Source: Synechococcus sp. (GTDB taxonomy: Bacteria; Cyanobacteriota; Cyanobacteriia; Thermostichales; PCC-7336). From it: a DNA stretch of 41,230 nucleotides. The translations under genes were made by a program, and so were the position numbers. How positions within the stretch are numbered: the stretch's first letter is position 1; each line of letters begins with the position of its first letter. Shown here piece by piece: positions 1 through 24,462 of the stretch. The notes under the pieces were generated by a model. That model searched no databases and was not told where the DNA came from. It was given only the letters and a program-made list of their open reading frames with translations. The stretch lies in contig JBFRWD010000163.1 in the NCBI GenBank assembly GCA_051439425.1, forward strand, positions 1 to 41,230, written 5' to 3'.

Positions 1-904
1 CCGTCGGTTGGAATTGACCGGCCCGCAACATCGACACATCAAATTGGTCGATGGTCATTTCTCGCGGGCCGCGCATTTGAGACACATCGGTATTGAGAAA
101 GTCCACTGCGACGCGATGGGGATTGAAAACGCGTCGGGTAGAGACGTTGACGGGGCCACTGGTGCGAATAAAAAATCCGTCGTTTGTGGTCTCGATGCTC
201 AGAATATGGGTACGTACGGAAGAAGCCTGAGTGGCATTGTTGCGAGATGCCTCTCCTTGAACAATCCTACTTGGCTCAGCATTGACAGGTGGTGAAGTCG
301 GACCTGGAGCCCGAGCAACTGGAGGAGAAGATGCGGTTTGGGTGGAGCTGTACTGAACGGGGATGAGTAGTTGGACGGCCCACCGCTCCGGCGATGCAGT
401 GAGCAGTTGAAACTCCTGTTGAGTGATGGGTTGCTCCGGATCGATATCCATCACCAGTCGGGCGATATCGGGGCTGAATTGGCTGAGGCGGATCGATCGC
501 ACTCGACCGGAATATTGCTGCGGCTCTTCCCTTTGACCCAATCTGACATTGGGTAGATCGATAACGATGCGTGAGGGATTCTCTAGCGTGAAAAGGCGCG
601 GGCGGGTTTGTCCCTGAGTGGTGAGATCTAAGCGCCCGAGAACAGGGTTGTAGGTCCAGCTGTGCAAACGCACTGGCTCGGCTTGAGCGATGAGTGGTGG
701 AGTCTTTCCTGCTGAAGACTGCGAGTCTTGAGACTGAGCAATCTGAGCAAATGCAGCAGGAGCAATTGCCAACGGCACTACAGCACCACCCATGCCCATT
801 AAGACACCACCGATAAATAGCCACCAACAAGTCCAGAGCATCCACCATTGGTGGAATGTGGCTAGCAGGGTGCATTGAGACACTAGAACCGGTAGTCGCT
901 TCAT
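1..904 (-). CDS. AMIN-domain protein, probably N-acetylmuramoyl-L-alanine amidase (AmiC-like); 5' part only, runs off the window
   Basis: Not in the ORF track (no stop in window). Manual translation from ATG 904: MKRLPVLV..., hydrophobic leader ending APAAFA, then two AMIN-like segments (RLFTLENPSRIVIDLPNVRLG...VRSIRLSQFSPDIARLVMDI and RVFNPHRVAVDFLNT...LRAGQFQPT). Catalytic domain not visible. Confidence 0.75.
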   Translation of the reverse strand, partial: MKRLPVLVSQCTLLATFHQWWMLWTCWWLFIGGVLMGMGGAVVPLAIAPAAFAQIAQSQDSQSSAGKTPPLIAQAEPVRLHSWTYNPVLGRLDLTTQGQTRPRLFTLENPSRIVIDLPNVRLGQREEPQQYSGRVRSIRLSQFSPDIARLVMDIDPEQPITQQEFQLLTASPERWAVQLLIPVQYSSTQTASSPPVARAPGPTSPPVNAEPSRIVQGEASRNNATQASSVRTHILSIETTNDGFFIRTSGPVNVSTRRVFNPHRVAVDFLNTDVSQMRGPREMTIDQFDVSMLRAGQFQPT

Positions 905-1240
905 CACCACACCTTCAGCTTGGCGCTCCTTCTCAATGAAGGAAGCGGTATATTTACGGCTTACGAGGATCGGATCGATCTGTGAGTAATGGCGAACCGT
1001 ATCGTCTCCCGTAACCTTTCAAAGGGAAGAACGCCAAAATCTTCACATTGACGAGATCGCACATTCAGGGCTTGTCGCTAGATTTCTCGCTGGTTCACAA
1101 CTGCCGCCACCTGTCTCTGCTCTTGGAGTATTTGCGCGAGTTGGCTTGCCCAGGCGAACTTCACTAACCTTGACCTCTACCCGCCCCCGTTCTGGACTGC
1201 CACCGAGTCTATACTTCAACCGACAGCGAGCATCAGGGGA

Positions 1241-1274
1241 TTGACACAAAAAAGATAAGTTATAACATAACTTA
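1241..1274 (+). promoter_or_regulatory. sigma70-like promoter with overlapping proteobacterial-type Zur box (copy 1)
   Basis: TTGACA 1241-1246, 16 bp spacer, TAACAT 1263-1268. Perfect inverted repeat TAAGTTAT-AAC-ATAACTTA 1256-1274 matches the GTTAT-N3-ATAAC core of proteobacterial Zur boxes. Conserved at 22230-22260. Confidence 0.8.
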
Positions 1275-1309
1275 GTCGTACAGTTCATGGCTCGAATGGC
1301 GAGGTGAAC

Positions 1310-1714
1310 ATGGGTAGGCGAGCTAACGAAACGCAATCAGAGGTACTGGCAGTTCTACGTGGCCATCGTGGCCCGCTGTCTGCCTATGACGTGATCGGGG
1401 AGTTGCGTCAGGTCAGTCCGAAAATCGCACCGCCAACGGTTTACCGAGCGCTGGAAGCGTTGGCCGGACGAGGGCTGGTTCATCGTCTTGAATCGCTGAA
1501 GGCCTTCATCGCCTGCAAGCATAACGAATGCCAACATGCGTCGATCTTCGCAATCTGCGACGAGTGCGGCACGGTCGAGGAACGCTTTTCACCTGACTTG
1601 TTCGAGGAGCTTTCCCGCATTGCGGGGCAGTCTGGATTCATCTCGACGCGCCACGTCATCGAACTCCACGGTCTTTGTGCCTCATGTGGTGGAACGGGAG
1701 ACAACCTGGCATGA
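1310..1714 (+). CDS. zur: Fur-family Zn uptake regulator Zur, proteobacterial type (copy 1)
   Basis: SAYD...APPTVYRAL...VHRLES...C..H..F.ICxxCG.VEE...E.HG.CxxC motifs; GAGGTG RBS before ATG 1310. Confidence 0.88.
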   Translation: MGRRANETQSEVLAVLRGHRGPLSAYDVIGELRQVSPKIAPPTVYRALEALAGRGLVHRLESLKAFIACKHNECQHASIFAICDECGTVEERFSPDLFEELSRIAGQSGFISTRHVIELHGLCASCGGTGDNLA

Positions 1715-1818
1715 ATTCGCGTCGCAGACAAAGCCTGAGGCTTCTGATGCTTGGTGCTATCCACCGGATGACCGGTGCCTCATGGGTTGTGGCAGCGCTC
1801 TTGGCTGGGTTTTACTGA
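1711..1818 (+). pseudogene. Truncated copy of the 44-aa small membrane ORF
   Basis: MNSRRRQSLRLLMLGAIHRMTGASWVVAALLAGFY*; TGA replaces the TGG (Trp) of the intact copy at 22697-22831. Confidence 0.7.
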
Positions 1819-1940
1819 GCAATCTCCATGCCGGGAACCGATGACCACGTCCCGTCGGTCGATACGTTATTCGTTCACCCTAATTTAGCTTCCATGAGCT
1901 AGTTTTATCTCTGTTCAATCCACTGATTCTTGGTGTTTTT

Positions 1941-2960
1941 ATGACATCCTCAACAGCAGAATTGGCCGTCAAACGAGGAATGCCCATCACTATCATTACC
2001 GGCTTTTTGGGCAGTGGAAAAACCACTCTTTTGAATCATATTTTAAGCAACAAGGAAGATTTGAAAGTTGCCGTTTTAGTGAACGAATTTGGTGACATCA
2101 ACATCGATAGTCAGCTTTTGGTATCGACAGAGGAAGATATGGTGGAACTCAGCAATGGCTGTATTTGCTGCACCATTAATGATGGCTTAGTCGATGCGGT
2201 TTATCGAGTAATGGAACAGGGTGTCGATTACTTGGTGATTGAAACCACAGGCGTTGCCGATCCACTGCCAATTATCCTGACGTTTTTAGGTACCGAGCTG
2301 CGGGAACTGACCAGCTTAGATTCCATTATTACGATGGTGGATTCGGAAGCATTTACACCCGATCACTTTGAGAGTGAAGCGGCTTTAAAACAAATCATGT
2401 GTGCCGATATCGCGATTTTGAACAAAACGGATCTAGCGTCTTCCGAGCAATTAGAGCAACTGGAGGCCTATATTGGCGAGATGAAAGAGGGGGCCAGAAT
2501 TCTTCATAGCCAACAAGGTCAGGTGCCATTGCCACTCATTTTAGATGTTGGTTACAACAACCCTCAGGCTTACGCCGAACTGGTGCAGGAGGAAATCGAG
2601 CAAACAGAACACGATCGCGAACATCACCACGAGCATCATCACGAACACGAGCATCATCATCACCATTCATCCCATCTTGCTAATGATGGCTTTGTGTCTA
2701 TTGCGTTTGATAGCGATCGCCCATTTCAGCTCGGAAAGTTTGAACACTTTTTACAGGAACTACCTCAAGATGTATTTCGAGCCAAGGGCATTCTCTGGTT
2801 TGAAGAAAGTCCTCTCCGCAACATCTTCCAATTGAGTGGGCCCCGCTTCAACTTGGAAGGGGAAGAATGGCACACGCCACCCCGAAACCAGCTTGTTCTT
2901 ATCGGACGACATCTCGATACCGAACAGATACGGCAACATCTGACCAATTGCCTCGCCTGA
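1941..2960 (+). CDS. COG0523/CobW-family G3E GTPase metallochaperone with His-rich insert
   Basis: GFLGSGKTT, NEFG, GCICC, ETTGVADP, NKTD, His-rich stretch EHHHEHHHEHEHHHHH, CobW_C RAKG. Confidence 0.95.
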   Translation: MTSSTAELAVKRGMPITIITGFLGSGKTTLLNHILSNKEDLKVAVLVNEFGDINIDSQLLVSTEEDMVELSNGCICCTINDGLVDAVYRVMEQGVDYLVIETTGVADPLPIILTFLGTELRELTSLDSIITMVDSEAFTPDHFESEAALKQIMCADIAILNKTDLASSEQLEQLEAYIGEMKEGARILHSQQGQVPLPLILDVGYNNPQAYAELVQEEIEQTEHDREHHHEHHHEHEHHHHHSSHLANDGFVSIAFDSDRPFQLGKFEHFLQELPQDVFRAKGILWFEESPLRNIFQLSGPRFNLEGEEWHTPPRNQLVLIGRHLDTEQIRQHLTNCLA

Positions 2961-3074
2961 TATGCGGTCTTTCAGTCTCACTGTCGGGGACGAAAGACAG
3001 GCGGTTGCACCGCGATCGTTTAATCAAAAATGACTGAATTGATTGACTCGTTTTTCAATTACCCACAGGACCCC

Positions 3075-4535
3075 ATGGATCTCGTCCTCTACAACACCTT
3101 GACACGTCACAAAGAGCCATTTGTGCCGATCGATCCCGCTCGGGTGATGATGTATTGCTGCGGTGTGACGGTGTATGACGATTGCCACCTAGGTCATGCC
3201 CGTTCCTACATGGTTTGGGATGTACTGCGGCGGTATCTGCAATGGCGAGGCTACACGGTGCACTACGTGCAGAACTTTACGGATATTGACGACAAGATTC
3301 TGAATCGCGCTAGGGCGGAAGGGACGACGATGCAGGCGGTCAGCGATCGCAACATTGCGTCTTACTTTCGCGATATTCGGCGGCTTAATATTCTTGATGC
3401 CGATGACTATCCCCGAGTGACAGAGAATATCCCCGCCATTCATCAACTGATTCAGGCGCTAGAACAGAAAGGATATGCCTATGAAAGCGATGGCGATGTC
3501 TACTATGACGTCCGGCAGTTTGTGGAGTATGGAAAACTCTCTGGACGGCAGCTTGAGCATATGCAAGCAGGTGCGGGGGGGAGAGTGAATGCCGAGGCTA
3601 AACACCAAAAGAAGCGCGATCCGTCCGATTTTGCCTTATGGAAAACTGCGAAACCGGGTGAACCTGCATGGGAATCCCCTTGGGGAATGGGCCGACCAGG
3701 CTGGCACATCGAATGCTCGGCAATGATCCGGGCACGTTTGGGCGAAACGATCGACATTCATGGAGGTGGAGGCGATCTGGTATTTCCACACCATGAAAAC
3801 GAAATTGCTCAGTCAGAAGCAGTGACCGGACAACCGCTCGCTCGCTACTGGTTGCACAACGGCATGGTGACAGTGGGGGGAGAGAAGATGTCCAAATCAC
3901 TGGGAAATTTCACCACGATTCGCGCCTTGCTAGATGGGCAATGGGCTGACTATCCACACCCCGTCGATCCGATGGCGATTCGTCTATTTGTTTTGCAAGC
4001 TCACTACCGCAAACCACTGGACTTTACCCCAACGGCGATCGCAGCCGCTGAGAAGGGCTGGCAAACATTACATGCCGCATTAACTACAGAATTGCCGTCC
4101 AATGAGCTACCTGTAGATGCTCTAGATGCTAAAGCAGTCAGACGGTTTCAATCTGCGATGGATGATGACCTCAATACTGCCGCTGCGTTGGCGGTTCTGT
4201 TTGAATTGGCTAAGTCGATTCAGCGAGAGGTGAACCGAAGAACTCATCAATCAACTCAGAACCTATCGAATCGGCAACTTAGCCTCACATGGCAAACGTT
4301 AAACCAGCTAGCCCGCACCCTTGGGCTGGAGGCCGATCGAGACTCCCCAGCCTCCTCATCTAATTCGTCATTAGATATTGATATTGCTTGGGTAGAGACG
4401 TTATTGCACCAACGCCAAGCCGCACGACAGGAGAAACGCTACGCCGAGAGCGATCGGCTTCGTGCCGAATTACAAGCTGCGGGCATCGCCGTTGTGGACC
4501 TTCCCGGTGGCAAAACGGAATGGCATCGTGCCTAG
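3075..4535 (+). CDS. cysS: Cysteinyl-tRNA synthetase (start probably ATG 3075; track gives 3030)
   Basis: LYNTLT, CGVTVYD..HLGH, DFALWK, GRPGWHIECS, DIHGGG.DL.FPHHENE.AQ, KMSKS. Confidence 0.96.
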   Translation: MDLVLYNTLTRHKEPFVPIDPARVMMYCCGVTVYDDCHLGHARSYMVWDVLRRYLQWRGYTVHYVQNFTDIDDKILNRARAEGTTMQAVSDRNIASYFRDIRRLNILDADDYPRVTENIPAIHQLIQALEQKGYAYESDGDVYYDVRQFVEYGKLSGRQLEHMQAGAGGRVNAEAKHQKKRDPSDFALWKTAKPGEPAWESPWGMGRPGWHIECSAMIRARLGETIDIHGGGGDLVFPHHENEIAQSEAVTGQPLARYWLHNGMVTVGGEKMSKSLGNFTTIRALLDGQWADYPHPVDPMAIRLFVLQAHYRKPLDFTPTAIAAAEKGWQTLHAALTTELPSNELPVDALDAKAVRRFQSAMDDDLNTAAALAVLFELAKSIQREVNRRTHQSTQNLSNRQLSLTWQTLNQLARTLGLEADRDSPASSSNSSLDIDIAWVETLLHQRQAARQEKRYAESDRLRAELQAAGIAVVDLPGGKTEWHRA

Positions 4536-4697
4536 GCAAATACTGGCTCTATGAACACGTAACTGCCGCTGAGTGAACACAACGTTTTCTCGAAGCCACG
4601 CGTTTGACTCCAGCAGCAGCATAAATGTGGAACATTCCAATCAAAAAGATTATTACTCTCATCTCTTCAGTGTCTTTAGTGATTCGAGTCAGCTAGC

Positions 4698-5822
4698 ATG
4701 AGCCAATCCCAAGTGAAACAGTCCTATGACGTTGCGATTGTTGGTGCCGGGGCTGCAGGCATCGGCTGTGGCGTTGTGCTCAAAGGGCTGGGTCTAGAAC
4801 GCTTCACAATTTTAGACAGACACCAGGTTGGAGCTTCTTTCAGTCGCTGGCCTGAAGAGATGAACTTCATCACCCCATCATTTCCAAGCCACGGTTTTGG
4901 ACTCCTCGATCTGAATGCTGTGACCTTGAAGACTTCGCCTGCGATCGCTTTTCGGCAAGAGCACATCAGTGGCAAGCAATACGCCCAGTATCTGCAAATC
5001 GTTGCCGATCACTTTGAGCTGCCGATTCAAACTGGAGTTGACGTAAAAGGCGTCGATTCGTTGTCCCAGGGGGGCTTTCAACTCCATACTTCCGCTGGAG
5101 ACATCCGCACACAATTTGTCATCTGGGCCGCCGGGGAATATCAATATCCCAAGCTCAATCCGTTTCCAGGTGCAGAACACTGCATCCACAACGCTCGAAT
5201 TCGCTCCTGGACGGATCTAGAAAGCGACGAATTCATCATAATCGGCGGCTACGAAAGTGGCATGGATGCGGCAGCCAATTTAGTAGCGTTGGGAAAGAAA
5301 GTCGGCGTGCTCGATCGCAACGGAGCCTGGGCCGATCTCGACACGGATCCTAGCGTGTCTCTATCGCCCTATACCCTGCAGCGTCTGGCATTTGTTTATC
5401 GCACAGGTCGCTTGGACTTGGTGAGCGACGTCACCATTGAAGAAGTCAAACCTATCCGCGATGGTTACGCAGTCTACAGCGAAGATCGGAAGTGGACGAC
5501 AGCCCATCCCCCCATTCTATGTGCGGGGTTTGACACCAGTTTGAAGCAGATTGCTCCCTTATTTGATTGGTCCAAGGGCTACGCTGCCCTGACTGAAGAC
5601 GATGAATCCACTCTCACCCCTGGTCTTTTTGTGGCGGGTCCTTCTGTACGCCACGGGGATTTGATTTTTTGCTTCATCTACAAGTTTCGTCAGCGCTTCG
5701 CAGTGGTGGCCAATGCGATCGCAAACCGCCTTCAACTCGATACCTCTCCACTAGAACACTACCGCCAGGCTGGCCTCTTCCTGGACGATCTCTCCTGCTG
5801 CAGCAACGACTGTATCTGCTAG
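4698..5822 (+). CDS. NAD(P)/FAD-dependent oxidoreductase with Cys-rich C-terminus
   Basis: GAGAAG FAD motif, second dinucleotide motif IGGYESG, C-terminal DDLSCCSNDCIC. Confidence 0.88.
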   Translation: MSQSQVKQSYDVAIVGAGAAGIGCGVVLKGLGLERFTILDRHQVGASFSRWPEEMNFITPSFPSHGFGLLDLNAVTLKTSPAIAFRQEHISGKQYAQYLQIVADHFELPIQTGVDVKGVDSLSQGGFQLHTSAGDIRTQFVIWAAGEYQYPKLNPFPGAEHCIHNARIRSWTDLESDEFIIIGGYESGMDAAANLVALGKKVGVLDRNGAWADLDTDPSVSLSPYTLQRLAFVYRTGRLDLVSDVTIEEVKPIRDGYAVYSEDRKWTTAHPPILCAGFDTSLKQIAPLFDWSKGYAALTEDDESTLTPGLFVAGPSVRHGDLIFCFIYKFRQRFAVVANAIANRLQLDTSPLEHYRQAGLFLDDLSCCSNDCIC

Positions 5823-5996
5823 CACGTTCAGAATTTTGAATTCTCGTACTCAACCCAAACCGATAACCAGTTGCAATCCGCTATGGAGAGTTTGCTAGCC
5901 TAAGCCCTTTGCAAGTAAGGACGTCAACTGTCTCCACACTCCAAACCTTACAGCGGCTTCTCACATGACTCCGACCTTCTAGCTTCCCCCTCCAAC

Positions 5997-7643
5997 ATGT
6001 CCAGCACTATCCCCACTCACCGCACCACCCTCCTCATTGGCAAAGAGAGCACCGGTAAGTCGGAGCTAGTAGCGGCACTCACCGGCAAATCCCCAACCAG
6101 CAAGAACATTCAGGGCTCCACCCTGGCCTGCGAAATCTATCGCACCGGTGCAGATACCTTTATCGACACTCCAGGCATTCTCTTTCGCTCTGATACCGCC
6201 ACCACTCGCTTAGCCCTGATGCAACTTCAGGCCCATGACACTATTTTGTTGTTAGCGAAAGCGACCCACATTGATGATGACCTGGCGGACTTGCTACCCC
6301 TAGTGACCGGGAAACAAGGGCTGGTGGTCGTCACCTTCTGGGATAAAGTATTGCCTTCTGACTTTACCCAGCAGGTCCTAAGCTGTTGGGAGCAAACCTC
6401 CCAGGTCAGGTTTATTCCTGTGGATGCCCGTCATTTAAGCCAGGGACAACGCCAGCAGATTCTAGAAGCCTTGCAGACTCCAGCCCCCTTTCCACGGCAA
6501 TGGCAACCGATTCTGGCGAGCTGGCGGATCGAGCCTACACCTACCTGGTTGGAGCATCCCCGCTGGGGTGGCTTGCTGGCCATCCTTTTGTTACTGTTGC
6601 CTGCGGTCATTGCCGTTTGGGTCGCCAATGGAGTCGCGGGCATGCTCGATCCACCGCTCCAAACTGGTTTAGCCCCTCTGGTCAATTTCCTATCCCAGGC
6701 CCCATCGTTGCTAGAGGCGATTTTGATTGGCCGCTATGGCTTAGTCACAATGGGACCGCTGTTATTTGTCTGGGCGGTGCCTACGGTAATTCTGTATGCC
6801 CTGTTTTTAGGTGCATACAAGGCCAGCGGGTTGGTGGAACGCATTACCGTGGCCCTGCATCCGCTCCTGAGACCTTTCGGTCTATCCGGGCGAGATCTGG
6901 TGCGGGTAATTATGGGATTTGGCTGCAATGTGCCAGCCGTAATTAATACTCGCGCCTGTTCCAGTTGTTCCCGGCAGACCTGTGTGAGTGCGATTGCCTT
7001 TGGCTCCGCCTGTTCCTACCAGTTCGGCGCCACCTTGGGGGTCTTCAGCGCCGCCAATTTGCCTAGTTTAGTTGTGCCCTACCTGGGCTACTTAACCTTG
7101 ACCACTCTGATCTACACCCGTTTGATTGCGCCTAAAGCAGCCCGTTCCTCCCATAACGCCCTGATGATTGAACGGCGCACATTTTTGGAAGTGCCCCGTT
7201 GGTCAGCTATCTGGCGTGAAACTCAAGGTACCCTCGGCCAGTTTTTCTCCAATGCGATTCCCATCTTTTTAGCGATTACGATCGTCGCCTCAATGTTGGA
7301 CTGGTTTGGCCTCATCACTGCTCTAACGAGATGGATTAATCCCCTGATGGGACTGTTTGGCCTGCCTCCAGAAGCAGCTCTACCCGTTATCTTGGCCTCA
7401 ATCCGTAAAGACGGATTGCTGCTTTTTGCCGAACCGGCAACTCTGGCTGTGCTGACGCCGCTGCAGATTTTAACCGGAGTGTATCTGGCTGGAGTATTGC
7501 TGCCCTGCCTGGTGACGGTGCTGACCATCGCCCGCGAACAGTCGGCGCGGTTTGTGGTGGGGCTGATGGCTCGGCAGGCGATCGCCGCGATGTTTTTTTC
7601 AATACTTCTAGCCTGGGTAGGCAATGGGTTGCGACAGCTCTAG
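5997..7643 (+). CDS. Compact FeoB-like protein (P-loop GTPase + Gate-type membrane domain)
   Basis: G1 GKESTGKS, G2-like NIQGST, G3 DTPG, G4-like TFWD; membrane part with GFGCNVPAV..TR and LLPCLVT, resembling FeoB Gate motifs. Confidence 0.82.
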   Translation: MSSTIPTHRTTLLIGKESTGKSELVAALTGKSPTSKNIQGSTLACEIYRTGADTFIDTPGILFRSDTATTRLALMQLQAHDTILLLAKATHIDDDLADLLPLVTGKQGLVVVTFWDKVLPSDFTQQVLSCWEQTSQVRFIPVDARHLSQGQRQQILEALQTPAPFPRQWQPILASWRIEPTPTWLEHPRWGGLLAILLLLLPAVIAVWVANGVAGMLDPPLQTGLAPLVNFLSQAPSLLEAILIGRYGLVTMGPLLFVWAVPTVILYALFLGAYKASGLVERITVALHPLLRPFGLSGRDLVRVIMGFGCNVPAVINTRACSSCSRQTCVSAIAFGSACSYQFGATLGVFSAANLPSLVVPYLGYLTLTTLIYTRLIAPKAARSSHNALMIERRTFLEVPRWSAIWRETQGTLGQFFSNAIPIFLAITIVASMLDWFGLITALTRWINPLMGLFGLPPEAALPVILASIRKDGLLLFAEPATLAVLTPLQILTGVYLAGVLLPCLVTVLTIAREQSARFVVGLMARQAIAAMFFSILLAWVGNGLRQL

Positions 7644-7851
7644 ATTGTCAAAAGATGCGATGAATATGATTCTTATTTTGAGGTTTGGTTGTGCAGTGTG
7701 CGATGCACCGCGAACGACCGCCTCCAATCTCGTGCCACCCTCAGGTGAACCAAGCCGAATATTGGGACCAAATTCAGGATGTGTCTCCCAAAAAACGACA
7801 TACAGACTAGAACAACTAACTGCAGTTGAGTGAGATCTGAATGTGCAGAAC

Positions 7852-9781
7852 CTATGCCCTGAGTAACCGCAATCCATTCAGCGTTACCAGCAGTGTTGAG
7901 CCTTCATGGCCCAGCACTCCAGCCGGTAGAGTAAGTTCTCCCCAAAAATTAGCTACCATCAACAGGGCAATTGAGGTCAACGCCAGGGTGATGTTTTGCT
8001 GGATAATGCGTTGTGATTTTTTGCCGATGCGAATGGCCTGATCCAACTTGTCCAGACGATCTGCCATCAGCACAATGTCAGCAGTTTCTAACGCCACATC
8101 TGACCCAGCCCCACCCATGGCAATGCCGACCGACGCCTGAGCCAGAGCAGGGGCATCGTTGATGCCGTCTCCCACCATTGCTACCGTATGGTACTTATCC
8201 TGCAGGTTCTGAATGGCGGTGACTTTGTCCTCCGGCAATAAATCTGAGTAAACTTCATTGATGCCGATGCTGTGGGCAACAGTCTGCGCGGTGACCGCAT
8301 TATCCCCAGTGAGCATGACAGTTGCTGGAATACCCATTTGTTTTAGTTTGCTCAATAAACCCGCAGCTTGGGGACGCACCCGATCGGCTACCGCCAATAG
8401 CCCGACGATCTGCTGATGCTGGACGACCCAGACGATCGTTTTCCCCTCACTTTCAAGCTGTTGTCCGGCCTGGAATAGAGAAGTATCAATCGGGTCAGCC
8501 AGATCGTCCGAGACATAAGCAAGCTTGCCAGCGCGCGTGAACGCCCTTCAGTACCCCCACGATTCCCTGACCCACGTCAGCCTGAACAGCATCCATGGGC
8601 AATAAAGGAATGTTCCGCTCCTTTGCCGTTTGCACAATGGCTTGGGCAATAGGATGCTCTGAATAGACTTCCAGAGAAGCGATGATTTGCAACACTTGTT
8701 CTGATTGAAAAGCCGGTGCCGCCACCAGGTCACTTACTTGCAGAATCCCGGTTGTGAGGGTTCCAGTTTTATCAAAGGCAATCGCTTTTACCCGACCGAT
8801 AGTTTCTAGCTGGGCTCCGTCTTTGAACAAAATCCCTTGTCGTGCCCCCCGGGCAATGCCCGATAGCAAGGTCGGCATGATCGACGCCATCAGGGCACAG
8901 GGAGAGGCCACTACCAGAAAAATCAGCGCCCGGTAAATCGTCATTTCCCAACTCCAACCCAGGAGCAGGGGTGGCACCAGAGCCAGGACCAGACCTGATA
9001 CTACGATCAATCGGGCATATCCCCGCTCAAACCTTTCCAAAAATTGCTGGGAAGGGGGCTGGCTGGTTTTTGCCTGTTCAACCAGCCGAATCACTCGCTG
9101 AATCAGACTGCTTTCCGGCGGTTTGTGTAATTCCACCGTAAGTGCACCGCTACCGTTGATAGTGCCTGCAAACACTTCATCCCCTAGGGACTTTTCCACA
9201 GGAATCGACTCTCCCGTAATCGGGGCCTGGTTAATGGTGCTGTGGCCCGTTCTAATCAGCCCGTCGATGGGAATGAGTTCCCCGGGTTTCACAAGAATAC
9301 GATCTCCCACCTGCAAATCCTGAGTTGCCACCACCTGTTCCTGCCCTGGCAGCAATCGCCGCGCCGTATCTGGCGTCAGCTGCATCAAACTGCGAATATT
9401 TCGTTCGGTGCGGTGCATGGCAATGGTTTCTAAAGCACCACTAAAAGCGAAAATCAAGATGAGTACGGCCCCATCCACCAGCAGGTAAAACTGCCGCTGC
9501 CATAGCCCCAGTACTGCTGCCCCCACTGCCGCAATAATCATCAACAGGTCTACATCTAGTTCATGCTCTTGCCATAGAGTGGTCAGCCCCTCGCAAGCAC
9601 TCTCGTAGCCCCCGATCGCGTACCCGGCCAACAGTAGCGCGATCCCCAGCCCCACCCAACTCTCCTGCAGTGCCAACCCTCCCAGCAATGTCAACCCGGC
9701 GCACAGCATCGCTGCCAGCACCTCTGGATGGATATGTCTCCAGGAAAACACTCGCTTTCGCACCCTCATTACCAAGGCCAT
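7852..9781 (-). pseudogene. coaT: P1B-4 (Co/Zn) exporting ATPase, CoaT-like, split by a frameshift near 8530-8537
   Basis: TGES, SPC, DKTGTLT, SEHP in the 5' ORF; TGDN, GDGINDAPAL, HEGST in the 3' ORF. The 3' frame is open from ...GKLAYVSDD...EGKTIVWV...; likely start ATG 9781. Confidence 0.85.
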
Positions 9782-9811
9782 CAATCGAATCCAGCATTTT
9801 AGAGCCCCCTG

Positions 9812-9843
9812 AGCGTAAAGGTTGACATTGATGTTAATGTCAA
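9812..9843 (-). promoter_or_regulatory. MerR-type operator/promoter of coaT
   Basis: Inverted repeat TTGACATT-N6-AATGTCAA (9822-9843); minus-strand TTGACA, 20 bp spacer, TACGCT (9817-9812): the over-long spacer typical of MerR promoters. Confidence 0.88.
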
Positions 9844-9847
9844 GGAC

Positions 9848-10951
9848 ATGCTTACGATAAAAGACCTCACTCAAGCCGTCGGCCACGGCACCACCCCCCG
9901 CATGGTGCGGCACTACCACCAGATTGGGTTGTTGCCTCAACCCAGGCGTTCTGAGGGCAACTACCGCCTCTATACAGAAGTCGATGTGCAACGGCTAAAG
10001 GGGATTGTGGCGTTGAAACAACAGGGATTTCAATTGGCCCACATTAAGCAGATGCTGGACGCTCGGTCAGCAGCACCATCTGAGACGCTGGTTGGGCAAC
10101 TGCAGCAGCACTACCAGGTCGTCCTACAGCGCTTGACTCGGTTGCGCCAGACGGCCATTGCCCTGGAGGGGGTGATTGGGCGGGACCAGTCTTGCCAGTC
10201 GGTGCAGGCGGAGGCTCTGGCCCATTTACGACTATTGGACGTGGATGCGCAAACGGCCCAAACCCTGGCGGATGAACTCTGGCAACAACTGGATGAGGCG
10301 GCCGCTCATCATCCCGAAAATTTTCAGGAGTCTCTGCAACAGTTGTTACCCGATCTCTCTCGGCGTCCTGAAATTGAAGCCGATGTGTTGTCTCACCTGG
10401 TTTTGACCTGTGGTGATGTGGCTTTGGCTGCCTTTGTTCGGTTTAGCTCAGACGCGATCAAAGCAGCCCGCGAGTCTTTATCTACTGGTTGCAAGGTGAT
10501 TGGGGATATTCCTGCTGTGGTAACCAGTCTGGATCGGGTGCGTCTCGACCATCTGGGGTGCGACTGGCATACACTGATGGACGATCCCCATGTGATTAGT
10601 GCTGCCGATGCAGAGCAGGCTTTCTGGCAAGACACCAACTGGAAGAGACAACTGCAAGATTTGGGAGACGATAACATCTGGGTTGTCGGCTATGCCCCTT
10701 CGGTACTGATAGAACTTTGCAAGGCTATTGAAGCGCAGCAGTTGAAGCCAGCCCTGGTGATTGGTCTACCTATTGGATTTAGCCATGCCCCTGCTGCGAA
10801 GCGACAATTGATGCAGCTTAAGGTGCCCTACATCACCACTGAAGGAGCGGTTGGCGGTGGGTTAATGGCAGCTGTGGCGTTGAATCGGCTGGCGGCTTCC
10901 TTAATAGAGAAGCCTGACTGTCATTGTTATTTGCAGGAGGTGCGGGCTTGA
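9848..10951 (+). CDS. coaR: MerR-family regulator fused to a precorrin isomerase (CbiC/CobH)-like domain, CoaR-like
   Basis: MerR HTH (RMVRHYHQIGLL..RSEGNYRLY), CbiC-like LVIGLPIGF..A..AK..L and GGG..AA..LN, C-terminal CHC; divergent from the P1B-4 ATPase. Confidence 0.9.
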   Translation: MLTIKDLTQAVGHGTTPRMVRHYHQIGLLPQPRRSEGNYRLYTEVDVQRLKGIVALKQQGFQLAHIKQMLDARSAAPSETLVGQLQQHYQVVLQRLTRLRQTAIALEGVIGRDQSCQSVQAEALAHLRLLDVDAQTAQTLADELWQQLDEAAAHHPENFQESLQQLLPDLSRRPEIEADVLSHLVLTCGDVALAAFVRFSSDAIKAARESLSTGCKVIGDIPAVVTSLDRVRLDHLGCDWHTLMDDPHVISAADAEQAFWQDTNWKRQLQDLGDDNIWVVGYAPSVLIELCKAIEAQQLKPALVIGLPIGFSHAPAAKRQLMQLKVPYITTEGAVGGGLMAAVALNRLAASLIEKPDCHCYLQEVRA

Positions 10952-18915: not shown

Positions 18916-19986
18916 CTAGCCAAATCCTTTCCCTTGAGTGGTTTCCTTCCACACCAGTACCTCCCCTCGGCTACCACCAGCGGCAATCGCCCCTCCTGAA
19001 GGGTTCCAAGCGAGGCAAGAGAATCCGGCAGCGGCACCTTCAAGGACTTGGGTGAGGCGACTCGCTTTATGCCAAAGGCAAAGCCAGCCATCTTCGGCGA
19101 CGGAGGCCAGCAGGAGTGACTGGGGTTGGAACGCGATTGCTCTGACCATTCCTTGATGCAAGTCCAATACCTGGGCATTCCAGCCAACTGACGGGTCGCG
19201 GTCTTTTGTCCAGACAACAACGTCTTCACCACTGATAGAAGCTAAGAGGGGGGCATCACCAGTTTTTTTGCGCATTGACCAGGCAAGCTGCCGGATTTTG
19301 CCCGGAAAGCCCTGCATGCGCCAGGGGTGGGGATGGTCCTCCTCCCAAACCACGAGGGAGCGATCGTTACAACCAGAGGCAAGGTAGAAGCCATCGGTTG
19401 ACCAGGCGATCGCTCCACTGGCACCTCCGATCTCTTGCACGGTTGGGTCATCGTCCCAATCGCTTCGCTGCCAGGTTTGAATACTCTGATTTCCGCTGAG
19501 GGAGAGGCGATTGCCCTGCGGGTGCCATGCTAAATCGAGCACCGAGGAGAACTCGAAATTTAGGGTGGCGATAACCGATTGGGTGGCGGCATCCCACAGC
19601 TGGGCATAGCGCCCAAGGTTGAAGGCGAGTTCGGGATGTTGGGGATTCCATTGCAGGCGATCGATCCAAGCACGCTCATGCTCTAGAGTTGCGAGCAAGA
19701 TGGGTGTACTGCCATCCAGTCGCCAGATCCACACGGTTCCCGACTGACCCCCTGCCGCCAGAAAAGCACCATTGGCGGATATTGCCAATGCATCCACCGA
19801 TTCTCCCTGCGCCACCTGCAACAGGGTCATTTCACCCGTATTCTTGTCGAACCGCGCCACCTCTCCTGCGGCGGAACTGGCGAACAGCCATGCTCCGTCC
19901 GGTGACCAGGCGATCGCCGTCACGTAATCCGACAATGTCGTGTTCCACAGGGGTTTGAAAAGTTTCTGTCTATTAGATTTCGGCAT
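18916..19986 (-). CDS. WD40-repeat protein (start ATG 19986 or TTG 19995)
   Basis: Repeated AWSPDG/WNPQ/WHPQG/WSTDG/FQPQ blades; directly downstream of cobW. Confidence 0.9.
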   Translation of the reverse strand: MPKSNRQKLFKPLWNTTLSDYVTAIAWSPDGAWLFASSAAGEVARFDKNTGEMTLLQVAQGESVDALAISANGAFLAAGGQSGTVWIWRLDGSTPILLATLEHERAWIDRLQWNPQHPELAFNLGRYAQLWDAATQSVIATLNFEFSSVLDLAWHPQGNRLSLSGNQSIQTWQRSDWDDDPTVQEIGGASGAIAWSTDGFYLASGCNDRSLVVWEEDHPHPWRMQGFPGKIRQLAWSMRKKTGDAPLLASISGEDVVVWTKDRDPSVGWNAQVLDLHQGMVRAIAFQPQSLLLASVAEDGWLCLWHKASRLTQVLEGAAAGFSCLAWNPSGGAIAAGGSRGEVLVWKETTQGKGFG

Positions 19987-20082
19987 GGGCGGCAATCACA
20001 AGTCTTCTACCCCCAGGATTGTTGCTGGGTTAGGTATCGCTCTAAAGCACCATTTGGGACCTATCTAAGATTCCAAATGGCA

Positions 20083-21069
20083 TTAATAGCTCACCACACA
20101 AGCCCGAAAGTCTTCCGCCAGGTTCATTTGCTCTAGATCGCGACCGATGAAAACCAGTTCATTCTTGCGGGACTCGTCCGGTTTCCAGGGACGATCCTGA
20201 CGACCATCAAACAGCATGTGCACCCCCTGAAAAACGAAGCGGTGGTCTTCTCCGGCAATGTTGAGGATGCCTTTCATCCGAAAAATATTTGGACCATGTT
20301 CGCGTAGGAGTTGGCTGAGCCAATCGTTGAGCTTATCGCCATCCAGTTCCCCCGACTCAACCAGGGCCACAGACCCCACGGTTTCGTCATGCTCGTGCGC
20401 TGCTTCGTTGAGAAACTCAGGGTCGATTTGCAGTGCGTTATTCAAGTCAAACGCTTGAACTCCCAACAGGGCATCCATTTCGATTTGCGCGTCGCGGGTG
20501 CGGTGGATTTTAGCAATCGCATTCATCCCACGAATCCGCTGCTCCAGTTGAGCTAGCTCTTCCTCCGTCACGAGGTCAACCTTATTCAGCAAAATCACAT
20601 CGGCAAAAGCAATTTGCTCCACGGCTTCTTCCGCTTCCCAGTGCTGCCAAATGTGACGGGCGTCTACCACAGTCACCACAGCATCCAACTGAGCTTTTGC
20701 CTGTACCTCGTCATCCATAAAGAAGGTCTGAATGACTGGAGCTGGGTCTGCCAACCCTGTCGTTTCAATCACTATATTATAGAACTTGTCGCGCCGCTTC
20801 ATTAAGTTTCCAATGATTCGAATCAGGTCGCCTCTCACCGTGCAACAGATGCAGCCGTTATTCATCTCAAAAATTTCTTCATCCGCATCCACCACCAACT
20901 GGTTGTCGATACCCACTTCGCCAAATTCATTCACAATGACCGCCACCTTCTTGCCATGTTCGTAAGTCAGGATGCGGTTCAATAACGTTGTTTTCCCAGC
21001 TCCTAGGTAGCCAGTAAGCACGGTCACAGGCACCGTTGTGTTGTCGGTGGGATTGATGGCCGCAACCAT
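20083..21069 (-). CDS. COG0523/CobW-family GTPase without His-rich insert
   Basis: GYLGAGKTT, NEFG, GCICC, ETTGLADP, RMKG, QGVH; AGGAG RBS before ATG 21069. Confidence 0.95.
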   Translation of the reverse strand: MVAAINPTDNTTVPVTVLTGYLGAGKTTLLNRILTYEHGKKVAVIVNEFGEVGIDNQLVVDADEEIFEMNNGCICCTVRGDLIRIIGNLMKRRDKFYNIVIETTGLADPAPVIQTFFMDDEVQAKAQLDAVVTVVDARHIWQHWEAEEAVEQIAFADVILLNKVDLVTEEELAQLEQRIRGMNAIAKIHRTRDAQIEMDALLGVQAFDLNNALQIDPEFLNEAAHEHDETVGSVALVESGELDGDKLNDWLSQLLREHGPNIFRMKGILNIAGEDHRFVFQGVHMLFDGRQDRPWKPDESRKNELVFIGRDLEQMNLAEDFRACVVSY

Positions 21070-21092
21070 ATGCAACTCCTAAAGGTTGGCGA

Positions 21093-21117
21093 ATGAGATT
21101 GATACTCACTATCTCAT
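21093..21117 (-). promoter_or_regulatory. Candidate cyanobacterial-type Zur box upstream of cobW-WD40
   Basis: ATGAGATTGATACTCACTATCTCAT contains TGAGATT-G-ATACTCA, a 7-1-7 near-palindrome resembling TGA(T/G)AAT-n-ATT(A/C)TCA. Confidence 0.55.
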
Positions 21118-21227
21118 CCAACCGAGTAGGTTGACCCAACCCTTTGTTAAATTGCAAGCATTTTAATTTCAATGAGTTCACGCTAAAAAGCGCTACCGTA
21201 ACCAAATTCTGTATCAGGCTATTTTTC

Positions 21228-22142
21228 TCAGGTTTGGAAAAACTCTAGAGCAATATGACCCACATCAGCCGCATATTCTTCATATACCCCCAAGGTGCCG
21301 GAGACGCGCTGTTCTTGAATATGGGGCAGTGCTGTCAGGGCTTCCATCTCTGCTTTGGATTTTGGGGGAGCTTGCTCCGGGACGATCGCTTGCACGGGCA
21401 TGGAGAGCGATCGCCCCACCTCCAGCCATTCCTCCCGATCGCTCATTGGATCTAAACCCGCCGTGACAAAGGCGGCGGGGGCAAACCGGGCACCGGGTTG
21501 CTGAGTGATTTGATGTTTTTGGGTTATGAAGTCTGGCGTCAGTTTCTCTCCATCGACATACACATGTCGCTGGTACATCCACTTCAAAAACGCGGGGTGA
21601 GTGTTAAGCGAATAAAGTACTTGTCCTAACAGGGGCGATCGCACCAGATTTCTAGCTCCGTTAGCCACAACACTCGGTGCCCCCATCGCTTTGAAGGGAC
21701 CTTTCCAGGTGGGAGCAACGAGCAACAGCTTCGAGCACAGGCCGGGCTGACGGTGGGCTAGGTGAATGGCATACCCTGCCGCATGGCCAGCAGCGACTAT
21801 TGCCAGAGGATGAGGGCAGCAATCGCGCACAAAATCTTGAAGTAACTGCTCGTAGAGCGAGCGATCGTAGTGGACTCGGGGGCGATCAGACTCTCCAAAC
21901 CCTAACCAGTCCAGAGCAATCACTTGAAAGTGAGGGGAGAGAATCTGGGCAATGCCTGCTAGTTCGGTGCGGCTGGAAACAGTGCTGAAGGCAGGCAGCA
22001 ATAACACCGGAGAGCCTTGTCCTAGGATTTCATAGGCAATACTGAGCGATTGCCCTTGGTAGAGCCAGCTATAGGACTGGCGTTGAATGCTGATGGAAGT
22101 CAGAGAGGCCATTGGCTCTACCATTTTGAACTCCATAAACAA
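21228..22142 (-). CDS. Alpha/beta-fold hydrolase-like protein (cyanobacterial type; start uncertain)
   Basis: PVLLLPAFSTVSS, ALDWLGFGESDRP, AAGHAAGY in place of GxSxG. Confidence 0.85.
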   Translation of the reverse strand: MFMEFKMVEPMASLTSISIQRQSYSWLYQGQSLSIAYEILGQGSPVLLLPAFSTVSSRTELAGIAQILSPHFQVIALDWLGFGESDRPRVHYDRSLYEQLLQDFVRDCCPHPLAIVAAGHAAGYAIHLAHRQPGLCSKLLLVAPTWKGPFKAMGAPSVVANGARNLVRSPLLGQVLYSLNTHPAFLKWMYQRHVYVDGEKLTPDFITQKHQITQQPGARFAPAAFVTAGLDPMSDREEWLEVGRSLSMPVQAIVPEQAPPKSKAEMEALTALPHIQEQRVSGTLGVYEEYAADVGHIALEFFQT

Positions 22143-22229: not shown

Positions 22230-22260
22230 TTGACACGTAGAAGGTAGGTTATAACATAAC
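22230..22260 (+). promoter_or_regulatory. Promoter with proteobacterial-type Zur box (copy 2)
   Basis: TTGACA 22230-22235; GTTAT-AAC-ATAAC 22248-22260; same spacing as copy 1. Confidence 0.8.
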
Positions 22261-22298
22261 GAATGCATGCCGTTCATTGCTCAAATAGCAAGGTAAAT

Positions 22299-22700
22299 AT
22301 GGGTAGGCGAGCAAACACAACACAATCGAAGGTATTAGCGGTTCTGCGCAGTCATCACGCCCCACTGTCGGCCTATGACGTGATCGGGGAGTTGCGTCAG
22401 GTCAGTCCAAAAATTGCGCCGCCAACAGTTTACCGGGCACTGGAAGCATTGGCCGGACGAGGGCTAGTTCATCGTCTTGAGTCGCTGAAGGCCTTCATCG
22501 CCTGCCAGTATGACAGGCGTCAGCATGCGTCGATCTTCGCAATTTGCAATAACTGTGGCGCGGTGGAAGAGAGCTTAGCACCTGACTTGTTCGAGGAGCT
22601 TTCCCGCGTTGCGGGGCAATCCGGATTCACCTCGACGCGCCACGTCATCGAACTCCACGGCCTTTGCGCCTCATGTCAAACGGGAGACATCTCGACATGA
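22299..22700 (+). CDS. zur: Zur, proteobacterial type (copy 2)
   Basis: About 83% aa identical to copy 1 by manual alignment (111/134); heads the Zn ABC operon. Confidence 0.9.
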   Translation: MGRRANTTQSKVLAVLRSHHAPLSAYDVIGELRQVSPKIAPPTVYRALEALAGRGLVHRLESLKAFIACQYDRRQHASIFAICNNCGAVEESLAPDLFEELSRVAGQSGFTSTRHVIELHGLCASCQTGDIST

Positions 22701-22831
22701 ATGGACCTCGCAGACAAAGTCTGAGGCTTCTGATGCTTGGGGCTAGCCACCGGATGCTCGGTGCGTCACTGGTTGTAGCAGCGCTCTGGGCTGGGTTTTA
22801 CTGGGCGACCTCCATGTCGGGGGGACGATGA
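22697..22831 (+). CDS. 44-aa small membrane protein, below the ORF-track cutoff
   Basis: MNGPRRQSLRLLMLGASHRMLGASLVVAALWAGFYWATSMSGGR*; ATGA overlaps with both the zur stop and the znuC start. Confidence 0.8.
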   Translation: MNGPRRQSLRLLMLGASHRMLGASLVVAALWAGFYWATSMSGGR

Positions 22832-23568
22832 ACCACGCCATCGCATTCAAAAACCTCACGCTGGGTTACGATCACCAGCCGGCCGTAATTCAACTTCAAA
22901 CCGAAATTACTGAAGGTAGCCTGACCGCCATTGTCGGACCGAACGGCGCAGGCAAATCCACCATGTTGAAAGGTATTGTCGGCACGCTTTCGCCGCTCTC
23001 CGGGCAGGTGTCCTTCGGGACGATCGATCGCGCCAATATTGCCTATCTGCCACAACAATCAGAGGTCGATCGCGCCTTCCCAATGTCCGTGGTCGATCTC
23101 GTCGCGATGGGGCTCTGGCGTGAGGTTGGCCCCTTCGGCAGCCTCGGACGCACCTACCAGGCGCGCATTGCCGAAGCAATCTCGGCTGTGGGGTTGGAGG
23201 GCTTTGAGGCGCGCGCCATCGGAGCATTGTCTGGCGGGCAACTGCAGCGCGCTCTTTTCGCTCGTCTCTTGCTGCAGGATGCGAGTCTCGTGTTGCTCGA
23301 CGAACCCTTCACCGCGATTGATGCCCGCACGATGGTCGACTTGATCGGCGTTGTCACTCGCTGGCACGGTGAGGGGCGTACGATTCTAGCCGTGCTGCAT
23401 GACTTCGATCTAGTTCGCGCACATTTTCCCCGAACGCTGATGCTGGCACGCAAACTTGTCGCCCACGGGCCAACAGAAGCCGTTCTTACCGCTGAGAACC
23501 AGTTCCGCGCCCGCCAAATGTGCGAAGCCTGCGACGGTCCGCCGCATACGTGCGGTAGGAGTGCCTAA
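22828..23568 (+). CDS. znuC: Zn/Mn ABC transporter ATPase (ZnuC/AztA-like)
   Basis: GPNGAGKST, YLPQ, LSGGQLQR, LLDEPF; C-terminal CEACDGPPHTC. Confidence 0.88.
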   Translation: MNHAIAFKNLTLGYDHQPAVIQLQTEITEGSLTAIVGPNGAGKSTMLKGIVGTLSPLSGQVSFGTIDRANIAYLPQQSEVDRAFPMSVVDLVAMGLWREVGPFGSLGRTYQARIAEAISAVGLEGFEARAIGALSGGQLQRALFARLLLQDASLVLLDEPFTAIDARTMVDLIGVVTRWHGEGRTILAVLHDFDLVRAHFPRTLMLARKLVAHGPTEAVLTAENQFRARQMCEACDGPPHTCGRSA

Positions 23569-24443: not shown

Positions 24444-24462
24444 AACCTCTAAAGAGACCATC

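Follow-up and report, generated by a model that had tools for sequence, protein, structure and literature searches.

The 41,230-nucleotide (nt) stretch of Synechococcus sp. DNA considered here (contig JBFRWD010000163.1, hereafter the window) carries two adjacent genes coding for a flavoprotein (P0001) and for a compact FeoB-like GTPase/permease (P0002). They are the last of five co-directional + strand genes in 1-7643, the order being zur1, a COG0523 gene, cysS, P0001, and P0002. These genes and the parts of the pair are as follows.

1304-1714, + strand: zur1, a Fur-family repressor of the Zur type (Pfam FUR, 6.8e-13)
1941-2960, + strand: COG0523 (CobW/ZigA-type) GTPase gene (Pfam cobW, 7e-56, and CobW_C, 2.3e-24)
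3030-4535, + strand: cysS paralogue, coding for a cysteinyl-tRNA synthetase (CysRS; TIGR00435, 546.6 bits, over the 340 cut-off)
4698-5822, + strand: flavoprotein P0001, 374 residues (Pfam Pyr_redox_3, PF13738, 1.8e-97)
5796-5819, + strand: C-terminal tail CCSNDCIC of P0001, which ends DDLSCCSNDCIC
5997-7643, + strand: permease P0002, a compact FeoB-like GTPase/permease of 548 residues
5997-6491, + strand: P0002 G domain, about residues 1-165
6564-7640, + strand: P0002 membrane domain, about residues 190-548
6924-7013, + strand: P0002 cysteine cluster C310, C321, C324, C329, and C339 (GFGC...TRACSSCSRQTC...GSAC)
7506-7508, + strand: codon of P0002 C504

An earlier note, made from the letters of this DNA, had described both open reading frames (ORFs), the LSCCSNDCIC end of P0001, and a set of P0002 motifs, and had placed the two genes after zur, cobW, and cysS on the same strand; all of this is found in the window. 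The genome amounts to 4.8 Mb, is 96% complete, and harbors P0001 and P0002 as single copies.

Distribution of the gene pair

A one-genome-per-species scan yielded 128 stretches encoding a P0002 relative, the best 80 of which were kept as the locus set. These 80 loci are almost all cyanobacterial, one being labelled Chloroflexia and one Gracilibacteria. According to tblastn with the window proteins, the permease gene is immediately preceded by a co-directional flavoprotein gene in 73 of them. Five of the other seven have no room upstream (contig ends), L068 has no flavoprotein gene, and in L087 this gene lies downstream. The median flavoprotein-permease gap of the set is 59 nt, compared with 175 nt in the window, where a further 163 nt separate cysS from P0001; nothing recognisable was detected between P0001 and P0002 (5823-5996).

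The two genes also come and go together among 41 related genomes, the window's own included. P0002 relatives (71-100% identity) occur in G000, G001 (two copies), G021, and G027, and P0001 relatives occur in exactly those four, adjacent each time, while neither gene is present in 36 of the 41. Genome G037 displays two flavoprotein fragments (60-69% identical, C1:3883272-3883974) and, elsewhere, a 24%-identical FeoB-type match, with no compact permease; the fragments probably represent a decayed copy of the module. That the two genes belong together, as the earlier note had supposed, is borne out by both surveys.

In a plasmid collection, P0001 is found in 540 records and P0002 in 531, the genus tallies (P0001/P0002) being 499/498 for Klebsiella, 20/20 for Escherichia, and 2/2 for Haloferax. 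Cyanobacteria, Bacillota, enterobacteria, and haloarchaea all have members with the pair, and Klebsiella plasmid records containing it number about 500. P0001 and P0002 form an accessory, mobile two-gene module.

Zur operators and zinc-starvation neighbours

When short palindromes ahead of the flavoprotein gene were counted without a preset motif, TGATAAT-N-ATTATCA stood out. Among the 69 loci having at least 160 nt upstream (with a tolerant start definition), TGATAATNATTATCA is found at up to two mismatches in 59, of which 24 are perfect, 25 have one mismatch, and 10 have two. The box starts mostly 41-55 nt ahead of the flavoprotein start codon. It equals the Zur-binding sites of Anabaena alr3242 (TGATAATCATTATCA) and all3515 (TGATTATGATAATCA) given in the supplements of PMC10957091, and is unlike the Anabaena FurA consensus AAATAAATTCTCAATAAAT given in PMC4005646.

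At up to one mismatch, the box occurs 134 times over the 80 loci (1.14 Mb), lying ahead of the flavoprotein gene in 38 cases, of COG0523 genes in 14, and of cysS in three. Of the 78 other box-downstream ORFs, 47 were run through Pfam, revealing ZnuA (6), HisI (5), threonyl-tRNA synthetase (ThrRS, 2), SufE (2), OprB porins (2), HemB, and MetH. This gene set is that of the known cyanobacterial Zur regulon, as laid out in PMC6103462. In 14 of the 80 loci, a COG0523 gene lies no more than 700 nt from the pair, and in the Chloroflexia locus it sits between the two genes; a COG0523, cysS, or znu gene is present in 44 of the 80, and in 23 of the 36 loci of at least 15 kb. SufE genes with a Zur box ahead also adjoin runs of three COG0523 genes (L057:1524-1985 and L065:266-715).

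Comparable settings are observed on plasmids and outside cyanobacteria. On an Acaryochloris plasmid, a cyanobacterial box lies 49 nt ahead of the pair, with zigA and four Fur-family genes in the surroundings. In Klebsiella pneumoniae, an IncFIB/IncHI1B plasmid has the pair flanked by two groups of genes. The first comprises thrS, carbonate dehydratase, folE2, and dksA together with a COG0523 gene and a Fur-family repressor; the second comprises zigA, hisI, and another Fur-family repressor. There, GTTATGTTATAAC is located 21 nt ahead of the flavoprotein gene, one mismatch away from the core of the Escherichia coli Zur box, the consensus of which is GAAATGTTATA-N-TATAACATTTC (quoted in PMC4219657). 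A Zur-regulated cluster on Klebsiella plasmid pLVPK has been described by Haas et al. 2009 (PMC2770081, main text). On a Paenibacillus cellulositrophicus plasmid, the perfect palindrome TCGTAATTATTACGA heads a COG0523-rpsN-flavoprotein-permease operon, and a one-mismatch copy of it is found ahead of rpmG. We take this palindrome to be the Bacillus Zur consensus. On Haloferax gibbonsii plasmid pHG2, a COG0523 gene is divergent from the flavoprotein gene, an S14 paralogue, the permease gene, a hypothetical gene, and hisI. The pair is placed under predicted Zur-type operators in three bacterial lineages and adjoins zinc-starvation genes in archaea. The association with COG0523 genes and Zur boxes across phyla, which the earlier note had expected, is recovered, the archaeal case showing COG0523 linkage. 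As judged from these sequences, the two genes are passed on and positioned together, and in relatives they stand behind predicted Zur operators among COG0523 genes, znuABC, and back-up zinc enzymes.

Such surroundings resemble the Zur-regulated COG0523 islands of Haas et al. 2009 (PMC2770081, main text), in which COG0523, CysRS, ThrRS, HisI, FolE2, DksA, carbonic anhydrase, and ribosomal paralogues stand behind Zur boxes. In that main text, the pair is unmentioned: "FeoB" occurs 0 times, and "oxidoreductase" only in the background section. No paper assigning the pair a function was found in the literature searched, subscription journals being outside its coverage. The only literature sighting is the annotation table of an SCC-like (staphylococcal cassette chromosome-like) region of Staphylococcus haemolyticus, which lists an oxidoreductase and then "feoB" (PMC3637587). 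Database names for P0001 and P0002 relatives are generic. Whereas both the Zur regulon and the FeoB superfamily are established, the paired system, with its presumed chemistry, is not.

The zinc link proposed in the earlier note is supported in the relatives (boxes in 59/69 loci, plasmid islands); in the window, the pair's own operator is decayed, with four mismatches. Two regulatory features are of concern here.

4641-4662, + strand: decayed remnant of a cyanobacterial Zur operator, where relatives carry TGATAATGATTATCA
1241-1268, + strand: promoter-like site TTGACA-16-TAACAT, overlapping a Zur-type box GTTATAACATAAC at 1259-1271

At the operator position, the window reads ATCAAAAAGATTATTACTCTCATC, which by eye has four mismatches of the 14 specified bases in either register. 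The sister genome retains TGAGAATGATTATCA, with one mismatch (upstream alignment with five relatives). A whole-genome scan for the cyanobacterial 7-1-7 box at up to two mismatches gave 14 hits. Because none of them is on the pair's contig, a working 7-1-7 Zur regulon is not demonstrable in this genome. The boxes followed up lie ahead of the genes for formamidase, for a GGDEF protein, and for riboflavin synthase and, at a distance of 260 nt, ahead of folE. The other Fur-family genes of the genome, on contigs C117 and C20, look Fur-like and PerR-like.

The best NCBIfam model of zur1 is Zur PRK11639 (108.4 bits, under the 167 cut-off). Apart from the TTGACA-16-TAACAT site ahead of zur1, no promoter-like hit is found on the + strand in 900-8000, and the + strand terminator-like hits all fall within ORFs, none being intergenic. 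The box GTTATAACATAAC is located inside the palindrome TAAGTTAT-AAC-ATAACTTA. The same 13-mer is found, identical, at 22248-22260 ahead of a second zur gene (zur2) and at the Zur-island site on the Klebsiella plasmid. This enterobacterial-type box departs from the core of the E. coli consensus at a single position. The GTTATNNNATAAC pattern at up to two mismatches gives nine hits in the window versus 11.6 expected, and only the two perfect hits are meaningful. A hit of this type at 1866, ahead of the COG0523 gene, does not count as evidence.

Zur1 and Zur2 are 84% identical. Zur1-type proteins of at least 80% identity are found only in five genomes of the window's taxonomic family, other cyanobacteria matching at about 30%. 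Zur1/Zur2 may represent a lineage-specific or acquired Zur that has taken over the zinc genes of the region, and the window's zinc genes seem to answer to a separate Zur whose box is of the enterobacterial type. The pair now probably closes the operon headed by zur1, being reached by read-through from the promoter of that gene. Since its own canonical operator has been lost, zinc control of the pair in this genome would rest on that read-through. What the window adds is an apparent regulatory rewiring, in which the cyanobacterial operator is lost and the pair stands behind a lineage-restricted Zur paralogue with an enterobacterial-type box. The sequencing runs listed for the stretch are of marine sediment or marine metagenome DNA only, with no RNA run among them.

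The COG0523 protein encoded behind zur1 possesses a GCICC motif and a His-rich stretch, the ZigA and CobW models being under their cut-offs. A second genomic cysS, on contig C24 (632-2095), is 52% identical to that of the window. The window CysRS displays the motifs CGVTVYD, GWHIECS, and HHENE, which we take to be zinc ligands. With these retained, it would be a surplus copy that still depends on zinc, rather than a zinc-free replacement. Zur-regulated CysRS paralogues retaining their zinc ligands have been described (PMC2770081, main text).

The permease P0002 and the flavoprotein P0001

P0002 harbors the motifs GKESTGKS, DTPG, GFGCNVP, RACSSCSRQTC, GSACSYQ, and LLPC. Pfam analysis reveals Gate in two stretches (6.9e-15) and MMR_HSR1 (4.9e-9), FeoB_N being at 18.7 bits, under its cut-off of 27. 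The full FeoB models are likewise far from their thresholds, TIGR00437 reaching 88.9 bits versus a cut-off of 315.65 and covering residues 194-474 only, and PRK09554 reaching 36 bits versus 683. No FeoB over the TIGR00437 cut-off is found in the genome. The earlier note had pointed to the lack of feoA alongside the pair; the genome has no FeoA (PF04023) at E<=0.01, a search that was positive as a control in 12 of 14 reference genomes, FeoC being not searched.

Searching representative proteins, clustered at 50% identity, with P0002 gave 134 clusters at E<=1e-30, rising to 559 at E<=1e-10. Full-length relatives are 520-580 residues long and extend down to 27% identity, whereas proteins of canonical FeoB length (650-700 residues) match only residues 180-545 of P0002 (~1e-28). 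Among 50 diverse relatives, G15, G20, K21, P59, D116, C310, R470, K471, and D472 are invariant, and T42, D57, G60, and T113 are conserved in at least 90%. The cysteines are retained in 50 (C310), 48 (C321), 43 (C324), 42 (C329), 49 (C339), and 49 (C504) of these 50. C310, C339, C504, and the RKD motif are common to three FeoB relatives of canonical length, and C321, C324, and C329 are in none of the three. Out of 41 full-length representatives, 38 are compact, 27 of them with the exact C-x2-C-x4-C triad; the other three are long, none with the triad. The distance between the P-loop and the gate is 272-320 residues in the 38 compact proteins versus 397-436 in the three canonical ones.

P0002 shares with FeoB (NFeoB structures 3ss8, 3i8x, and 8vwn) a TEES-type G domain having G1 (GxxxxGK[ST]), the G2 Thr, and G3 (DxPG). 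Both have two Gate motifs, and the GFGC, C-S-x-Q, RKD, and P-C motifs are common to the two. In contrast, P0002 is ~545 residues long instead of 650-700, and ~100 residues following the G domain, corresponding to the helical S domain, are missing relative to the three canonical-length relatives (alignment). Furthermore, it has the additional C-x2-C-x4-C triad and a G4 of the T-F-x-D type, TFxD being found in the P0002 family versus NMxD in the canonical-length relatives. Its partner is a flavoprotein and not FeoA, and its operator is of the Zur type and not of the Fur type.

The AlphaFold2 model of P0002 (mean predicted local distance difference test score, pLDDT, 91.1; predicted template modelling score, pTM, 0.88) comprises a G domain, a 30-residue linker (160-190), and a helical membrane domain. 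The cysteines are modelled at the ends of the short helices 311-320, 323-336, and 340-352. A Foldseek search of the PDB with this model matches the G domain with NFeoB and Era, and the membrane part with the concentrative nucleoside transporter 4pb1. Since no full-length FeoB structure was among the matches, the membrane domain was compared only with the nucleoside transporter. The comparison with FeoB suggested in the earlier note thus gives a G domain that superposes on NFeoB and a linker that replaces the helical domain. Its expectation that P0002 would stand apart from the longer canonical FeoB agrees with the compact length, the scores under the cut-offs, and the missing helical domain. 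Sequence comparisons assign P0002 to the FeoB superfamily, as a separate compact branch and not an ordinary FeoB.

GAGAAG and GGYESG are the Rossmann motifs of P0001 for FAD and NAD(P)H. Of 71 readable orthologues, 70 share its tail, of the form ...DLSCCxx[DE]CxC, and the lone exception looks frame-shifted. In one sequence alignment the tail is invariant; forms found elsewhere are DLSCCGENCKC in Paenibacillus and DCCADDDCAC in Klebsiella. Being conserved in 70/71 orthologues and in 42-50 of 50 relatives, respectively, the P0001 tail and the P0002 cysteine motifs are not chance features. A full-length orthologue of P0001 is found in the PDB (3d1c_A, 5e-78, residues 8-374 on 3-369). This "flavin-containing putative monooxygenase", deposited without a function, ends similarly, with SCCEVSCTC (...SCCxxxCxC).

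The next solved relatives are the Bdr/YpdA structures 7a76 and 7a7b (~1e-13, nearly whole length), followed by TrxR-like ferredoxin-NADP reductases, the Baeyer-Villiger monooxygenases being further away. Because the nearest characterised relatives are Bdr/YpdA, disulfide reductase-type chemistry is favoured over oxygenation. The two share the two-Rossmann, low-molecular-weight TrxR-like build, and the Bdr model TIGR04018 scores 69.5 bits versus a cut-off of 339.9; P0001 is a relative of YpdA/Bdr and not a member. To our knowledge, Bdr has no four-Cys tail, and the organisms carrying the pair mostly make no bacillithiol.

The earlier note had drawn an analogy with mercuric reductase (MerA), of which only the tail part holds. 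MerA, an NAD(P)H flavoenzyme, has a flexible C-terminal ...LSCC... to which a thiophilic metal ion is passed. The enzyme class differs, P0001 being a Pyr_redox_3/Bdr-like two-Rossmann flavoprotein. A MerA-type class I enzyme was rejected because Pyr_redox_3 is the best Pfam family, Pyr_redox_2 reaching only 28.1 bits, and there is neither a dimerisation-domain hit nor a CxxxxC in the sequence. Unlike MerA, P0001 has no redox-active CxxxxC disulfide, and zinc is not reducible.

One source labels a P0001 relative "CzcD-associated flavoprotein CzcO". CzcO (COG2072) is presumably a flavoprotein encoded beside the zinc/cadmium exporter CzcD, of the cation diffusion facilitator family, in Bacillus subtilis. 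Like P0001, it is of the Pyr_redox_3 type and is linked at the gene level with a transporter of divalent metals; it differs in that its partner CzcD is an exporter of another family, induced by metal excess and not by starvation. A Zur-regulated "FAD-dependent oxidoreductase", G0132, has been reported in PCC 7002 (PMC4628125).

A candidate zinc module, its rivals and the neighbouring genes

The reading favoured here, for which the scales stand about level, is that of a two-gene zinc-starvation module combining a zinc-importing permease with a flavoprotein acting in reduction and thiolate hand-off. Upon zinc scarcity, Zur would leave the operator, and the permease would import Zn2+ (or another thiophilic divalent cation) along a route lined with thiolates, its GTPase serving as the gate. 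The flavoprotein, a cytoplasmic enzyme using NAD(P)H and FAD, would work as a disulfide reductase similar to Bdr and keep the permease thiolates and its own tail reduced. This four-cysteine tail (CC-x3-C-x-C) would take the metal at the cytoplasmic face and, through an exchange of ligands, hand it to COG0523 chaperones with a CxCC motif. CysRS, encoded alongside, may be among the clients that these chaperones then serve. As for this genome, the module would have been relocated behind zur1-COG0523-cysS, its own operator being gone.

Several points weigh against this reading. Cargo, direction of transport, use of GTP, and flavoprotein chemistry are all inferred from sequence, as are the non-iron cargo, the GTP-driven import, and the release or hand-over of metal to COG0523 by the flavoprotein that the earlier note had proposed. 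A flavoenzyme partner is not obviously needed, since zinc is redox-inert, and the genome already has znuCBA. The window's own copy of the pair is devoid of a recognisable operator, no cyanobacterial Zur box at up to three mismatches is found anywhere in the window (box scan), and 10 of the 69 relative loci have no TGATAATNATTATCA box at up to two mismatches. The 163-nt and 175-nt gaps have room for separate promoters, so that zinc-independent expression of the pair is possible. Finally, the P0001 model is poor, with a mean pLDDT of 69.9 and a tail below 50 (shallow alignment, 67-90% identity). The structural comparison of P0001 therefore rests on the 3d1c sequence match, the model being too poor for a fold search, and the placement of the tail relative to the flavin cannot be read from it.

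Four other explanations have been considered. The permease may import another divalent metal (Fe2+, Mn2+, Co2+, or Cd2+) under zinc scarcity for zinc-independent or cambialistic enzymes, the flavoprotein protecting its thiol path. This is the likeliest of the alternatives and is nonetheless unlikely. P0002 is indeed a FeoB relative sharing C310, C339, C504, and RKD with FeoB relatives of canonical length. Zur islands are rich in alternative enzymes (folE2, dksA, and S14 paralogues), some of which use other metals. Yet three lineage-specific Zur-type operators are found ahead of the pair and no Fur box, the FurA consensus given in PMC4005646 differs from the pair's box, and the neighbouring CysRS, HisI, and ThrRS retain a zinc-dependent chemistry (PMC2770081, main text). 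Moreover, the additional cysteine triad would make the site more thiophilic than that of FeoB. A quite unlikely possibility is that the pair handles a thiol/disulfide compound or a zinc-thiolate chelate, the permease moving the compound and the flavoprotein binding or releasing zinc by redox. The reduction of a low-molecular-weight thiol disulfide by Bdr/YpdA, the nearest relatives of P0001, is in line with it, as is the membrane domain, which falls in the fold family of nucleoside transporters (Gate domain, 4pb1). No genes for the biosynthesis of such a compound travel with the pair, however, in the 80 loci or in the plasmid islands. The cysteine-rich hairpin motifs look like a metal site, and the module is found in organisms with differing low-molecular-weight thiols (cyanobacteria, enterobacteria, Bacillota, and haloarchaea).

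The decayed operator leads to another suggestion, that the pair in this genome is a relic, no longer zinc-regulated or decaying after its relocation. The four mismatches, compared with one in the sister genome, and the frame-shifted P1B-type ATPase gene nearby are consistent with it. Both ORFs, however, are intact and 87-90% identical to the sister copies, all conserved cysteines, G motifs, and the tail are retained, and the genes are co-directional behind a Zur-type box and a promoter. A relic ranks behind a thiol-compound carrier in probability, and is improbable. Least credible of all, and very improbable, is an ordinary ferrous-iron FeoB lying by chance beside an unrelated oxidoreductase. 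Some sources do auto-name P0002 relatives "ferrous iron transport protein B", but the TIGR00437 score is less than a third of its cut-off, FeoB_N is under its own, the ~100-residue helical domain is missing, and the genome has no FeoA. The gene order fixed in 73/80 loci and the Zur boxes ahead of the pair also argue against chance adjacency.

Prokaryotic high-affinity zinc uptake is mainly carried out by ZnuABC/AdcABC, ZIP carriers, and metallophore systems. If the zinc-module reading is correct, a FeoB-derived, GTPase-coupled permease tied to a flavoprotein would constitute a new route of zinc uptake, and would provide the first clear job for a flavoenzyme in the handling of a redox-inert metal. 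The module would also be a candidate upstream supplier of zinc for COG0523 chaperones. A bolder proposal, put forward tentatively and rated as doubtful, is that of a GTP-gated, redox-assisted thiolate relay for zinc, a third importer class beside the ATP-binding cassette transporters of the ZnuABC type and ZIP/ZupT. The five-to-six-cysteine site of the permease would capture Zn2+ too tightly for passive release. The flavoprotein tail, cycling between dithiol and disulfide, would pull Zn2+ off and deliver it directly to COG0523. Such a relay would spread across the bacteria-archaea divide by way of plasmids, the large ones of Klebsiella among them. These ideas are testable, owing to the crystal structure of a flavoprotein orthologue (3d1c) and to cultured carriers, namely Leptolyngbya PCC 7375 and PCC 6406, Crocosphaera, Acaryochloris, Paenibacillus, and Haloferax gibbonsii.

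Beyond the five-gene run, the window carries further features.

22248-22260, + strand: Zur-type box of the second zinc locus
22263-22700, + strand: zur2 ORF (probable start 22299)
22828-25521, + strand: znuCBA
18916-22142, - strand: alpha/beta hydrolase gene, second COG0523 gene, and WD40 gene, divergent from zur2-znuCBA
7852-8397 and 8495-9991, - strand: P1B-type heavy-metal ATPase, split over two ORFs
9848-10951, + strand: MerR-type DNA-binding domain fused to CbiC (precorrin-8X methylmutase-like), divergent from the P1B ATPase

As its two ORFs occupy different frames, the P1B ATPase is frame-shifted or mis-assembled; in the sister genome (L047), both matching pieces are in one frame. The MerR-CbiC/P1B ATPase pair is also present in L046 and L057, and this fusion together with the ATPase resembles what we take to be the cobalt sensor CoaR and exporter CoaT of Synechocystis. 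Finally, a WD40 beta-propeller gene regularly comes after a COG0523 gene, often with an alpha/beta hydrolase gene, as observed in the window (18916-22142) and in L033, L037, L050, L054, L057, and L079.

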